Assembly: GCA_039930405.1 (NCBI GenBank)
Contig: JBDTTW010000221.1
Coordinates: 1 to 36,470, forward strand
Source of the DNA: a bacterium
Lineage (GTDB): Bacteria > Acidobacteriota > Blastocatellia > Pyrinomonadales > Pyrinomonadaceae
Reading direction: 5' to 3'
Length of the DNA: 36,470 nt
Shown here: positions 17,144 to 20,716 of the stretch, piece after piece
How the letters are laid out: every line of letters starts with the position of its first letter
Position numbering within the stretch: the stretch's first letter is position 1
Notes under the pieces: model-generated
Databases searched by the model: none
What the model was told of the DNA's origin: nothing
What the model saw: only the letters and a program-made list of their open reading frames with translations
Translations under genes and position numbers: made by a program

Positions 17144-20100
17144 TCAGACTTCCATCTGCTCTTGCACGCTCGCGAACAATGCTTCCAGATCGTGCACCGG
17201 CAAACTCAGGTCGATTGCGCCTTCGGGCGTCTCGAACCTGAAATGATCTCCCACGCGCGTCGCGACTACATACTCAATTGGCCGCGCCGACTTGAGAATC
17301 TCTTTGCCATCGACTTGCAGGCGCTGACCATCCATGACAACTAACTCCAATAGTGCTTCCGCTGTCCGCTCATCGCTGCGGTTGAACCTGGCCCAGGTCC
17401 ATTTAAAATCGGACACGAAGCGCACGGTCTCAATCACACTTAGTGTTTCGTCGCGCAGCATTACGAAGTCGCGATGGTGTTCGCCGGTTATCTCGATCGC
17501 GCGGCCACCGATCGCTTCAACCTCATCCACTTCAAACTGCGGCGTGCCAGCAGCGAGGGGTAATAGCACCGTCAACAGCTCCGTCGGCCCGTTTGAATGC
17601 TCGGAAAAAACGCACACTGGTGCCGGGACTCTGCTTCCATAACAGTCCGAACCTGAGCCATTTTCCCTGCTCCAGCGACCTGATTCGGAAGCGCTGAAGA
17701 CTTGTAATCCGGGCGTTTCGCCGCTTTCCACGATGGGCGCCGCTGATTCCTCGGCGACTCCGGCTTGTGGCGCGGCATCCGGGGCAAAATGAAACCGTAG
17801 CGCGAGGTCGTGTTCGCCATTGGAAGTGACGCGGTCTCGCATCACCCAGTAATCATGTTTGAGGAAAAGAATGCTGCGCTTGTGCGTCGCCGGCTCCGGC
17901 AAACTTTCATAGCCGTTGTGCTTACCTGCAACGTAAGTAAACCGTCGCGCGTTGAGCCACGACAAAGGTTCGCACTTCGCCACTGTTGACCACGAGAATG
18001 GTCCGGCCGGAACGGAAGACGACTGTCCATCGATGTTCAAGGTGTTATGCGCAGCCGAGCTGCGAAACCAGTCGCGCCATTCTTTCGAGCCGGTGTAAGT
18101 GAACGTCCCCGGATCGATCAGCAACGACCGACCCTGCGCTGCAACTTCAATCGCCAACGCATCGGCGTGTGCGTGGCCGCTGTTGAGCGCGCCATGAGGA
18201 CCGCAATCGAATAGCAGATAGTTCGCCTGCGCCGTCCAACCGTCGCGCATGACGTAATAACCCGCCACTGAAAATTCTTTGCTGTCGACGCTCGGCGGGG
18301 CTGCCTTAATCTCGTCAAACTCTTGCGCGCCTTCTGGTCCCAGCAGCCAAAACGTCTCTTCGGCTAAACCGCTCGCGACGAATTTGTAATCGCCGCGATG
18401 AAACAACGCCGCGCCGTTCGACAACGCGGCGCGAAAATCGTTGACCGGGCGTCGGTCAAGAAACAACAGCCTACCCCCATCATCATCGCCAAAAAGCGGA
18501 CTCGTGCCATCAGGCCGCGTAATGTGCATCAGGTGGTCCAGCAACAATTGCAGCGTGCGCTCGACTTCAGCCGGCAGGCGCTCGTCGTTAAGACGCGCGA
18601 GAATCAGGAAATGCGTGTAGAAATCTGCGGTGTAACGGTGGTAGTAACTGGACTGTTCAAAATAGACGCCGTCGGTTCGCACCTGCCGCGAGATCTGTTC
18701 TAGCAGAATTTGCTTTCCCTGCTGGCGCCAACGATTTGCTTCCTTGAAGTCAGGCAACAATGTCCCCAGGTAAAACAATCCCAACGCCTCGCCGGTCAGA
18801 TGGGTGTTGGGGCTGAAGTAAGTTGAAAGATATGTCTCCAGATGCAGCGCGTTGAGATAAAGAAACTTCAAGAGCCGCGAATACAGGTTCGCATTTAGTG
18901 ACGGTGAATCCTTGAAAACTTCCAGCGCCCACAGCCAGGAAATCGAACGAAAGGCAATCTCAAGACTGCTGGCCCAATTGATCCCAACCTTTGGCGGGTT
19001 CTGGTCCATCCATGATTCGAGCTGCGCGACAAACGCTTCTGCGTAATGCTCGTCGCCGGTTAACCAATAGGCCTTGCCCAGCGTCACAAAGTACTGATGC
19101 CGATTCAGCTCCCAGGTAATTTTCTTGTCACCGGCTAACTCGGGATCGAGATAGTTCAAACGACTCCAGTGAATGTTTGGCGCCGCCTTTTTGGAAACAG
19201 GCTCGAGCTGCCAGTTGATAGGCTGGCCGAAATCAAGGCCTTTGAAACCAAGCAAATCAAAACGACTTTCGAGAATGCGATCGGCTTGAGCAACAATCTC
19301 AGATTCGGCTGCCGGGAATCGTCGTCTAAACTCAGCGGTGCTCTTTTCCCGATCAGCAAACGCAGCGAAGAATGCATCACGTTTTTGCACGCGGAAAGCT
19401 GCAAACAATTCGGTCAGGGAACGAAAAGTCTTTCCGCCATTGCTGGAAAGCAGTTTCAACAAACCAACGTCCGATGGCAGCTTCGTTAGACTCGACCAGC
19501 CGTGTCTTTCAGAAAAAGCAGCGACCGCTTGAGCGCTTCTCTCGCGTAGCTCGGCCACACTCATATTGCGCAGCTTCGCGAACCTGCTTGGCTTGTTGGA
19601 TTCTGGGAAGGTTTTCGCTGCAAGGTCGTGATACGACTCAACCCAGTTCTGGCCCAGCGCCTGCCATCCATACTTTTCACATTCGGCTAATGCATTATGA
19701 GTAATTGTTTGCGACAGATTCGGATTCTCAAGCAGACTCAGCGCCCGTTCGGCGAGCGCTTCGTGATCTGCTCTTGCGACGACGAAGCCATTCACGCCGT
19801 CGTTTACCATGTCGGGAATCCCGCCCGCGTCAGTGGTTACAACCGGCAAGCCGCAGGCGAAAGCTTCAAGAATTGAAAGCGGCTGGTTGTCGATTTCCGA
19901 ACCGTTCAGAAAAATGTCTGCCGCTTCATACTGCTCCACGATTGCGTCGTGCTTTACCTGCCCCACGAATTCCGTGTTGCGCAGACCCAGGTCGCGGGCC
20001 AGATTTTCCAAGGCCTCGCGTTTGCTGCCGTCGCCGGCGACGGTGAGGCGCGCATCGGGCAGTTGTTTTTGAATAAGTGCAAATGCTTGTAGCACATGGT

Positions 20101-20716
20101 CCACACCGTAGTGCTTTTCGAGGTTGCGATTCGAAAGAAAGAGCGGCTGGAGCGTCGGGCGTTCACGAAAAGTAAAGTTATTAAGTTCGACAAGGTTGTT
20201 AATCGCGCGCGCTTTTAGTCCAAATTTACTGAACACGCGAACCAGGTACTCGGAAGGCACCACAACTTCATCAACCACTCGTAGCGTCGCAACCGCTGAA
20301 GGCCAGCGGCGCAAATGATCCTCCGCCTCGCCGCTGTGGTAGTTCAGCAACGTCTTCTTGCCAAAAAGCTTTCCGATCAGAATTGCTGGAGTCGGGGCCA
20401 GTACAAATGAAAAGTACGATGCCGAGAAAATATGCAGGACGTCATACCTGGGAACGCGTGCCAGCAAACTGAAAACATAAAACACCGAAGTGACGACCGT
20501 GCGAACGTACTTGATAGCCTGAAGCTTTCGCAGTAAGCCGGGACAACGCGGGTTGATAGCCAGGAAATCCACTTTCAAGGACGGCACTTCATGCAGACGA
20601 GCGATGAGCCGCGCGGCTTGAACTGCCTGCCCGCCGAGAATGTCGAATGAAGGGCCAACCACCAGAATTCGCAGCGGCTTCCCAATAGCATTGATTGTTT
20701 GTGTCTTATGGCTCAT
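17144..20716 (-). CDS. Fusion protein: N-terminal GT4 glycosyltransferase, heparinase II/III-like (alpha/alpha toroid plus beta sandwich) region, and a ~190-aa C-terminal extension
   Basis: 1190 aa. Residues ~15-365 (about 19622..20674) are GT4 (NQPLSILEAFACGLPVVTTDAGGIPDMVNDGVNGFVV). Residues ~470-1000 (about 17717..19309) carry heparinase-II/III-like motifs: ITWELNRHQYF, GINWASSLEIAFRSISWLWAL, DGVYFEQSSYYHRY, CGPHGALNSGHAHADALAIEV, AAHNTLNIDG. Its start overlaps the upstream GT4 stop by 4 nt. Confidence 0.8.
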   Translation of the reverse strand: MSHKTQTINAIGKPLRILVVGPSFDILGGQAVQAARLIARLHEVPSLKVDFLAINPRCPGLLRKLQAIKYVRTVVTSVFYVFSLLARVPRYDVLHIFSASYFSFVLAPTPAILIGKLFGKKTLLNYHSGEAEDHLRRWPSAVATLRVVDEVVVPSEYLVRVFSKFGLKARAINNLVELNNFTFRERPTLQPLFLSNRNLEKHYGVDHVLQAFALIQKQLPDARLTVAGDGSKREALENLARDLGLRNTEFVGQVKHDAIVEQYEAADIFLNGSEIDNQPLSILEAFACGLPVVTTDAGGIPDMVNDGVNGFVVARADHEALAERALSLLENPNLSQTITHNALAECEKYGWQALGQNWVESYHDLAAKTFPESNKPSRFAKLRNMSVAELRERSAQAVAAFSERHGWSSLTKLPSDVGLLKLLSSNGGKTFRSLTELFAAFRVQKRDAFFAAFADREKSTAEFRRRFPAAESEIVAQADRILESRFDLLGFKGLDFGQPINWQLEPVSKKAAPNIHWSRLNYLDPELAGDKKITWELNRHQYFVTLGKAYWLTGDEHYAEAFVAQLESWMDQNPPKVGINWASSLEIAFRSISWLWALEVFKDSPSLNANLYSRLLKFLYLNALHLETYLSTYFSPNTHLTGEALGLFYLGTLLPDFKEANRWRQQGKQILLEQISRQVRTDGVYFEQSSYYHRYTADFYTHFLILARLNDERLPAEVERTLQLLLDHLMHITRPDGTSPLFGDDDGGRLLFLDRRPVNDFRAALSNGAALFHRGDYKFVASGLAEETFWLLGPEGAQEFDEIKAAPPSVDSKEFSVAGYYVMRDGWTAQANYLLFDCGPHGALNSGHAHADALAIEVAAQGRSLLIDPGTFTYTGSKEWRDWFRSSAAHNTLNIDGQSSSVPAGPFSWSTVAKCEPLSWLNARRFTYVAGKHNGYESLPEPATHKRSILFLKHDYWVMRDRVTSNGEHDLALRFHFAPDAAPQAGVAEESAAPIVESGETPGLQVFSASESGRWSRENGSGSDCYGSRVPAPVCVFSEHSNGPTELLTVLLPLAAGTPQFEVDEVEAIGGRAIEITGEHHRDFVMLRDETLSVIETVRFVSDFKWTWARFNRSDERTAEALLELVVMDGQRLQVDGKEILKSARPIEYVVATRVGDHFRFETPEGAIDLSLPVHDLEALFASVQEQMEV

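Follow-up and report, generated by a model that had tools for sequence, protein, structure and literature searches.

Heparinase III (heparan-sulfate lyase, HepC) of polysaccharide lyase family 12 (PL12), with structures from Pedobacter heparinus (4MMH) and Bacteroides thetaiotaomicron (4FNV, 5JMD), is a secreted, degradative enzyme that combines a helical toroid with a beta-sandwich and has Tyr294, His424 and Asn240 (4MMH numbering) as catalytic residues (PMC12088678). Human DS-epi1 (6HZN), an animal Golgi enzyme acting on polymer, uses this lyase-type fold for uronate C5-epimerisation in biosynthesis. The mannuronan C5-epimerases AlgG and AlgE, which convert D-mannuronate (D-ManA) to L-guluronate (L-GulA) downstream of an AlgD-type dehydrogenase, are right-handed beta-helix proteins that work in the periplasm or outside the cell on the finished polymer of a synthase-dependent pathway. 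Here we describe a 1190-residue protein from a soil acidobacterium, encoded in a 36,470-nucleotide stretch of contig JBDTTW010000221.1 (the window), in which a family 4 glycosyltransferase (GT4) is fused to a heparinase II/III-like (HEP) domain. Sequence comparison establishes that this protein is coupled, physically or genetically, to glycosyltransferases, a uronate-forming dehydrogenase and amidotransferases, and that it keeps the machinery for C5-proton abstraction. We propose, at a rough probability of 0.45, that the HEP part works in the cytoplasm, coupled with the glycosyltransferase, as a uronate C5-epimerase that turns D-ManA into L-GulA, and is hence a bacterial counterpart of DS-epi1.

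The fusion is a single open reading frame (ORF) with an ATG start codon in the ORF list (Table 1), and a Pfam scan found the expected GT4 and heparinase II/III domains, all three above their gathering scores: Glycos_transf_1 at residues 187-342 (E 8.5e-39, 133.3 bits against 26.4), Hepar_II_III_N at 472-745 (E 1.1e-44, 153.6 bits against 22) and Hepar_II_III_C at 809-1027 (E 6e-48, 163.9 bits against 24). An AlphaFold2 model built on 54 homologues (mean pLDDT 88.2, pTM 0.71) has a complete GT-B fold at residues 15-367, a disordered stretch at 369-376, a helical toroid at 378-802, and beta-sandwich domains from 813 to about 1170 with a helix at the end. The original prediction had placed a linker of about 100 residues between the two parts; it is in fact about 8-10 residues long, and residues 378-470 correspond to the conserved N-terminus of stand-alone HEP proteins, which begin about 10 residues ahead of the motif KLRxMSxAELRxR. 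Among fused homologues the linker varies from 8 to 45 residues and differs in sequence, always in frame. The C-terminal 190 or so residues, initially considered featureless, are not so: alignments with heparinase III run on to about residue 1060, and residues 801-1157 match the PL39 alginate lyase 6jp4. The C-terminal beta domain and helix are present in Pyrinomonadaceae-type proteins and missing from the remotest fused homologues P0109 and P0120 (1073-1085 residues); the lineage-specific part is confined to the last ~110 residues. A separate HEP product starting at internal Met385 was considered and rejected, as split homologues start about 10-15 residues upstream of this position and lack a Met at it.

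By sequence and model, the HEP domain is placed in the heparinase II/III superfamily, nearest to PL12. Heparinase III gave the best sequence and structure matches (profile E 1e-60, Foldseek about 1e-30; TM on target 0.65-0.77 for 4mmh and 4fnv), with both Pfam domains, the toroid and beta-sandwich, and equivalents of Tyr294 and His424 in common; the PL39, PL17, PL15 and PL21 lyases followed in the Foldseek search, which also returned DS-epi1. Identity to PL12 enzymes is nevertheless only about 20-23%. Unlike them, the window protein has no signal peptide, is fused to a GT4, and lies in a biosynthetic operon rather than a utilisation locus; it is also extended by a 90-residue helical segment at the N-terminus and by a beta domain at the C-terminus, and has N-T-H in place of G-N-H. 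It fell far below the NCBIfam HepC equivalog (172 bits against a cut-off of 700; 150 against 600), and because of this score and its lack of a secreted, degradative character we do not classify it among the heparinase III enzymes. Likeness to DS-epi1 is at the level of the fold only (Foldseek E 4.6e-16, TM 0.62 on target), and DS-epi1 was absent from the best 60 of 128 profile matches of the fusion. The original prediction had cited the Bermanella C5-epimerase as a precedent for the same fold. That enzyme, from Bermanella RED65, was identified in a BLAST search with animal Glce, of which it is a homologue (PMC3068255), and is not a Hepar_II_III member; the proper epimerase precedent with a lyase fold is DS-epi1. 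The Glce-type epimerase family was absent from the Pfam matches of the fusion. A search of a viral structure library with the fusion model returned essentially glycosyltransferase matches alone.

The four motifs quoted in the original prediction were all found, at residues 536-543 (ELNRHQYF), 580-598, 689-695 (SSYYHRY) and 846-858 (SGHAHADALAIEV). The expected Asn/His/Tyr catalytic set held in part. Tyr692 and His848 are kept as the equivalents of heparinase III Tyr294 and His424, the latter in the motif GHAHAD; the Asn is displaced by one residue, such that phmmer aligns T638 to the Asn240 neutraliser and H639 to the His that follows it, with N637 one position earlier in the invariant motif SPNTHLTGE. 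The 54 homologues, down to 38% identity, show no variation at Y692, H848, H850, D852 or H890, nor anywhere in the S635-E643 motif. P-N-T-H occurs in 111/111 HEP-bearing matches and is replaced by D-N-N-H in the Ralstonia type, and the His that follows the catalytic Tyr is Gln in one distant branch. Because Y692, H848, H850, D852, H890 and N637-T638-H639 do not vary, the protein is predicted to be an active enzyme; the conservation argues for one with a slightly remodelled carboxylate-neutralising site.

The GT4 part shares the complete GT-B fold and the Glycos_transf_1 domain with the retaining enzymes BshA, PimA, PimB' and MshA, and Foldseek matched it to the first three at TM 0.72-0.79 on target. 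It differs from them in the first acidic residue of the EX7E motif, which is Asp (D-x7-E, IDNQPLSILE; the second Glu is retained), in the unusual DNQP context, and in the poor match of its N-terminal half to the Pfam GT4 N-domain models (E 0.0097). The same variant appears in the homologue consensus. At about residues 270-285 (region 19880..19910) Asp thus stands for the first Glu and DNQP for EGFG, in the family consensus as in the window. Tandem GT4-GT4 proteins of 760-830 residues without a heparinase-like part also occur (P0108, P0111-P0119); in P0108, the sole one read, both halves resemble the GT4 of the fusion and carry DNMP as a variant of DNQP.

Fused and split forms were counted over the 80 closest species-level loci. 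Five of these are fused, 33 have a separate GT4 paralogue abutting directly upstream of the HEP gene, and 42 have another neighbour or a contig end there, so that fusion is a minority state, restricted by clade; among the 150 best representatives of 50%-identity clusters six are fused and the remainder stand alone, mostly at about 600-890 residues. Fused proteins of 1190-1250 residues form about 90 independent 90%-identity clusters (38-93% identity) drawn from NCBI, JGI, ENA and Logan assemblies, and the nearest of the five fused species-representative genomes is a Blastocatellia metagenome-assembled genome at 93% identity. In a neighbour-joining tree on raw identity, which is indicative only, the window protein lies inside one large all-fused clade, and fused proteins occupy at least four other positions among split ones. 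This scatter implies that fusion (or fission) happened repeatedly, and its recurrence supports the idea, put forward in the original prediction, that fusion signals functional coupling of the GT4 and HEP parts. Triple fusions GT4-GT4-HEP of 1580-1690 residues were also found (P0010, P0011, P0012, P0023, P0038, P0041, P0044); they join an stp2-like GT4, a GT4 and HEP, the first two of which merely overlap by ATGA in the window. The cultured type strain Pyrinomonas methylaliphatogenes K22 (NZ_CBXV010000008.1, L022) has a split module with the order AsnB - AsnB - GT4 - GT4 - HEP - AsnB - GT4 - GT2 - AlgD-like. The family as a whole is large. At E <= 1e-30 it has 4,886 representatives, one per 50%-identity cluster, and species-representative genomes contain no fewer than 598 loci that match.

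Judged by its genes, the window encodes an exopolysaccharide pathway of the exosortase-associated kind, which a Wzx-type flippase marks as Wzx/Wzy-dependent. The AsnB paralogues said to flank the fusion are genuine (Asn_synthase E 1e-110 for amidotransferase 1, 1e-118 for amidotransferase 2). The dehydrogenase gene, which the original prediction had called AlgD, matches P. aeruginosa AlgD (1mfz) over its full length at 512 bits (E 1.5e-152), against 257 bits for the best UDP-glucose dehydrogenase; the claim that the locus makes GDP-mannuronate thus stands, and the UDP-glucose dehydrogenase identity suggested by NCBIfam was overturned by this search of PDB sequences. The tight operon, with an ATGA overlap upstream of the fusion and a 9-nucleotide gap downstream, supports a cytoplasmic biosynthetic context. 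The lack of a signal peptide, noted from the start, together with the joining to a nucleotide-sugar-dependent GT-B enzyme, implies that the fusion protein is cytoplasmic, as predicted from the sequence; stand-alone HEP homologues also open with a conserved helix and have no signal peptide. Fusion to a glycosyltransferase within an exopolysaccharide biosynthesis operon speaks against a degradative periplasmic role, in agreement with the original prediction.

The gene order conserved in relatives is AsnB2 - GT4 - GT4 - HEP - AsnB1 - GT4 - GT2 - AlgD - DUF218 - beta-helix protein. AsnB immediately follows HEP in 47/62 related loci, and an AlgD-like gene is present in 32 of the 49 loci with enough flank. 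The beta-helix protein corresponds in the window to 9241..10884 (-), a 547-residue protein conserved in related loci, with an N-terminal hydrophobic segment and weak matches to the right-handed beta-helix (E 2.6e-4) and to alginate lyase 6kfn (E 1e-3); it is a candidate for an exported lyase, or for an epimerase of the AlgG kind, acting on the polymer of this locus. The 401-residue product of 8010..9215 (-) has no Pfam or NCBIfam match, and its homologue lies directly upstream of HEP in 17/80 loci, in the order AsnB2 - unk401 - HEP - GT4 - GT4 - AsnB1.

Modules in which HEP is combined with a sugar dehydrogenase, a GT4, an AsnB or a two-domain oxidoreductase recur across six phyla. The recurrence of separate AsnB, heparinase-like and GT4 genes, put forward in the original prediction, was borne out in Acidobacteriota, Gemmatimonadota, Alpha-, Beta- and Gammaproteobacteria, Actinomycetota and Nitrospirota; modules in other phyla were located by tblastn against plasmids and by look-ups of the encoding contigs. 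Rhizobium rhizoryzae and Shinella have dehydrogenase - GT4 - HEP, the Shinella dehydrogenase being 53% identical to the AlgD-like enzyme of the window. Streptomyces has dehydrogenase - GT4 - Wzz - Wzz - asnB - two-domain oxidoreductase - HEP - beta-helix, in 'Ca. Manganitrophus' the GT4 gene overlaps HEP, and Pseudomonas mosselii and Marinobacterium have GT4 - AsnB - alcohol dehydrogenase (ADH)/Gfo-Idh-MocA oxidoreductase - HEP - GT4 - priming transferase. In the Streptomyces plasmid locus (L086 10782-12305) HEP is immediately followed by a gene that carries the annotation right-handed beta-helix repeat protein and shows no BLAST similarity to 9241..10884 of the window. In BLAST comparisons GT4 partners from other phyla are about 25% identical to all five GT4s of the window, and this evenness does not support a single orthologous GT4 partner of HEP.

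The exopolysaccharide (EPS) I operon of Ralstonia solanacearum encodes a 612-residue HEP homologue (QKZ34664.1; E 5e-32 to the HEP part of the window protein), which occurs on 128 megaplasmids and retains the N-H, Y-H, H..ADAL and HNT motifs. The operon runs epsA/P/B, wecB, wecC, flippase, polymerase, GT4, acyltransferase, oxidoreductase, HEP, GT4. WecB and WecC synthesise UDP-N-acetyl-D-mannosaminuronic acid (UDP-D-ManNAcA), and EPS I is said, in work by Orgambide and colleagues from 1991, to contain N-acetyl-L-galactosaminuronic acid (L-GalNAcA), a composition that the Ralstonia literature examined did not confirm. The route from UDP-D-ManNAcA to L-GalNAcA requires inversion at both C5 and C3; HEP could invert C5 and the oxidoreductase C3. 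A 711-714-residue oxidoreductase of this kind (zinc-ADH plus Gfo/Idh/MocA) always lies immediately upstream of the ~610-residue proteobacterial HEP and overlaps it (L081 11602-15578, L083, L084, L086), and AsnB precedes the oxidoreductase-HEP pair in Pseudomonas mosselii, Marinobacterium and Streptomyces. The two-domain ADH/Gfo-Idh-MocA oxidoreductase is absent from the window. The P. aeruginosa PA14 O-antigen locus presumably also contains a HEP gene. The PA14 O-antigen itself contains L-GalNAcA (PMC2997053). In Vibrio vulnificus the heparinase II/III-like gene VV0358 is needed for capsule, the mutant being acapsular (PMC6037467), and Acinetobacter WeeE/WeeF (GnlA/GnlB) have been postulated to make UDP-L-GalNAcA (PMC9676051). 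From gene order, WeeE and WeeF are probably an oxidoreductase and a HEP protein; the name WeeF or GnlB is borne by none of the top 120 Ralstonia-type matches listed.

These proteobacterial proteins (QKZ34664.1, VV0358 and probably WeeF/GnlB) belong to the same superfamily as the HEP part of the window protein, keep its motifs, are cytoplasmic, and are encoded amid GT4 and dehydrogenase genes, with AsnB among the neighbours in P. mosselii and Marinobacterium. They differ in their ~27% identity to it, their length of about 610 residues without the N- and C-terminal extensions, D-N-N-H for P-N-T-H, and the paired oxidoreductase; fusion to GT4 was seen in none of the 120 matches listed. The full-text literature searched held no biochemical characterisation of the fusion or of any biosynthetic heparinase II/III-like protein.

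In the mechanism we propose, the GT4 domain would transfer a sugar onto an undecaprenyl-diphosphate-linked repeat unit, and the HEP part would act on a uronate, most probably D-mannuronate, which the AlgD-type dehydrogenase would provide as GDP-ManA. The substrate of the HEP part could be either the nucleotide sugar or a residue that the fused GT4 has just attached to the non-reducing end. Tyr692 and His848 would serve as base and acid and N637-T638-H639 would neutralise the carboxylate while the C5 proton of the uronate is abstracted. A free 4-OH is a poor leaving group, so the enolate would be reprotonated on the opposite face, leading to C5-epimerisation and not to cleavage. The window lacks the two-domain oxidoreductase and GDP-D-ManA serves there as precursor; L-GulA is therefore the product that we predict, possibly in amidated form, as the neighbouring AsnB enzymes would amidate carboxyl groups of uronates. 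The chemistry would be that of AlgG and AlgE, carried out by a different fold in a different compartment. The epimerase chemistry, the identity and level of the substrate and the role of AsnB are the parts of this reading that we infer.

Several points weigh against a C5-epimerase. All sequence relatives whose structures have been solved are lyases (PL12, PL39, PL17, PL15 or PL21), and sequence as such would fit lyase and epimerase chemistry alike. Thr occupies the position of the PL12 Asn neutraliser, with Asn one residue earlier, making the active site unlike either precedent. Were 9241..10884 an AlgG-like epimerase, a second one would be unnecessary. The GT4 partners across phyla are not clearly orthologous, and WeeF is counted as HEP-like by gene order only. 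The lyase structures and the invariant Tyr/His pair would equally suit a true cytoplasmic beta-eliminase acting on a 4-O-substituted uronate of the lipid-linked intermediate, possibly in order to make a 4,5-unsaturated terminus, to trim or proof-read repeat units, or to recycle undecaprenyl-phosphate-bound intermediates; biosynthetic operons do include lyases, AlgL being one example. We consider such a lyase unlikely. It would be wasteful for an enzyme to cut an intermediate of its own pathway in the cytoplasm. The lyases known from biosynthetic pathways work in the periplasm, whereas the HEP family has no signal peptides, and the exported beta-helix protein already provides the locus with a candidate lyase. 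Moreover, co-occurrence with uronate-forming dehydrogenases, and with the oxidoreductase in Ralstonia, Pseudomonas and Streptomyces, fits synthesis of an L-uronate, and the V. vulnificus mutant is acapsular (PMC6037467).

A narrower version, which we count within the C5-epimerase reading, has the HEP part act strictly on the nucleotide sugar, converting GDP-D-ManA to GDP-L-GulA and channelling the donor to the fused GT4. Joining a donor-making enzyme to the transferase that uses its product is a common logic, and the partner oxidoreductases are of the Gfo/Idh/MocA type, whose members WbpB and WlbA act on UDP-sugars; the Acinetobacter pair, with WeeF assigned to HEP by gene order only, is likewise named for UDP-L-GalNAcA synthesis (PMC9676051). 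The lyase fold, however, has an extended polysaccharide-binding cleft, Pfam detected no nucleotide-binding element in the HEP part, and the GT4 gene lies upstream of HEP in most genomes with partners that vary, all of which leads us to doubt that this version holds. Loss of catalysis altogether, leaving a uronate-binding scaffold that holds the acidic glycan or organises a complex of glycosyltransferase and AsnB at the membrane, would suit the Thr at the Asn neutraliser position and the Gln that replaces the His after the catalytic Tyr in a distant branch; invariance of catalytic-type residues down to 38% identity is typical of an active enzyme and makes a scaffold very improbable. Finally, the genes are separate and abutting in 33/80 relatives, the arrangement from which an assembly error or frameshift could have produced the fusion artificially, a concern raised in the original prediction. 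Its presence in about 90 independent 90%-identity clusters and five species-level genomes, the coherent fused clade around the window and the in-frame variation of the linker leave next to no chance of an artefact.

Heparinase-like genes in glycan biosynthesis loci were already visible, though unexplained; what is new is the evidence from fusion, which serves as Rosetta-stone evidence for a biosynthetic role of HEP. Tentatively, and extending the C5-epimerase reading beyond the window, the cytoplasmic PL12-like proteins of polysaccharide loci may form a large, unrecognised family of bacterial uronate C5-epimerases, counterparts of DS-epi1, in which fusion couples transfer and epimerisation on one intermediate. 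L-hexuronic acids (L-GulA, L-GalNAcA and N-acetyl-L-gulosaminuronic acid, L-GulNAcA) occur in surface glycans such as Ralstonia EPS I, the PA14 O-antigen, V. cholerae VPS and Acinetobacter capsules, and neither to our knowledge nor in the literature searched has the C5-inverting enzyme of these Wzy-dependent pathways been identified. If the proposal is right, HEP proteins would make the L-hexuronic acids of Wzx/Wzy-dependent glycans: L-GulA in the present locus, the L-GalNAcA of Ralstonia EPS I, of the PA14 O-antigen and of Acinetobacter emulsan, and possibly other L-hexuronic acids that lack an assigned epimerase. The lyase-to-epimerase recruitment seen in animal DS-epi1 would then also have occurred in bacteria, and new enzymes for tailoring uronate polymers would be at hand; Ralstonia, Pseudomonas and V. 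vulnificus offer tractable cases. Public annotation names these proteins 'heparinase II/III family', 'alginate lyase family' or 'glycosyltransferase', and labelling them only as heparinases or alginate lyases misleads metabolic and carbohydrate-active enzyme surveys into counting degradative genes.

Table 1. Positions in the window of the fusion gene, its domains and catalytic codons, and of neighbouring genes.
Feature	Position	Strand	Basis
Whole fusion ORF, 1190 aa, GT4 + PL12-like heparinase II/III domain	17144..20716	-	ORF list, Pfam, AlphaFold2 model
GT4 domain (GT-B, retaining-type), residues 15-367	19616..20674	-	Glycos_transf_1, Foldseek, translation, homologue consensus
Interdomain linker, residues ~368-377	19586..19615	-	Sole internal stretch with pLDDT <50 (369-376)
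N-terminal helical extension (378-470, motif KLRxMSxAELRxR) + alpha/alpha toroid (Hepar_II_III_N), residues 378-802	18311..19585	-	Pfam, DSSP on model, homologues
Codons N637-T638-H639 of invariant SPNTHLTGE motif	18800..18808	-	phmmer alignments to 4mmh, 5jmd, 4fnv; invariant columns
Codon Y692, equivalent of heparinase III Tyr294	18641..18643	-	phmmer alignment; invariant in 54 homologues
Codon H848, equivalent of heparinase III His424, motif GHAHAD	18173..18175	-	phmmer alignment; invariant column
Antiparallel beta-sandwich (Hepar_II_III_C), residues 803-1060	17537..18310	-	Pfam 809-1027, model strands
C-terminal beta domain + terminal helix, residues 1061-1190	17147..17536	-	Model strands 1062-1170 at high pLDDT; profile match to PL39 6jp4
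stp2-like GT4 upstream of fusion	20713..21939	-	Stop overlaps fusion start codon (ATGA)
AsnB-type amidotransferase 1	15188..17134	-	Begins 9 nt past fusion stop
AsnB-type amidotransferase 2	22005..23960	-	Closest to XrtA/PEP-CTERM amidotransferase model, under cut-off
AlgD-type GDP-mannose 6-dehydrogenase, GDP-mannuronate supply	11511..12926	-	PDB sequence search, Pfam
Wzx-type flippase	23965..25608	-	
Exosortase (2239..3291) + EpsI (1598..2242)	1598..3291	-	NCBIfam

Besides the fusion, the locus encodes five further GT4s, one GT2 and a priming transferase fragment. The exosortase scored 177.8 bits with TIGR02602 (cut-off 105.55) and EpsI 133.9 bits (cut-off 42.8); no specific Xrt subtype model of NCBIfam reached its cut-off in the window. 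Exosortase and EpsI are separate, overlapping ORFs that jointly come nearest to the fused XrtD (VPLPA-CTERM) model, under its cut-off. The XrtA-system amidotransferase and stp1/stp2 equivalogs were the best models for their genes, yet remained under their cut-offs (743 and 635 against 816.9; 249 against 316.65; 163 against 409). Two Wzy_C (O-antigen ligase-like) membrane proteins are encoded in the one locus (27371..28813 and 32988..34496, -), along with an AMP-dependent acyl-CoA ligase (31067..32902) and a PhyH-type dioxygenase (7039..8013), a set that suggests further modification of the polymer. The proteins encoded by 25630..27420 (596 residues) and 28949..30145 (398 residues), both on the minus strand, have no Pfam or NCBIfam match and hold the same positions in related Pyrinomonadaceae loci.

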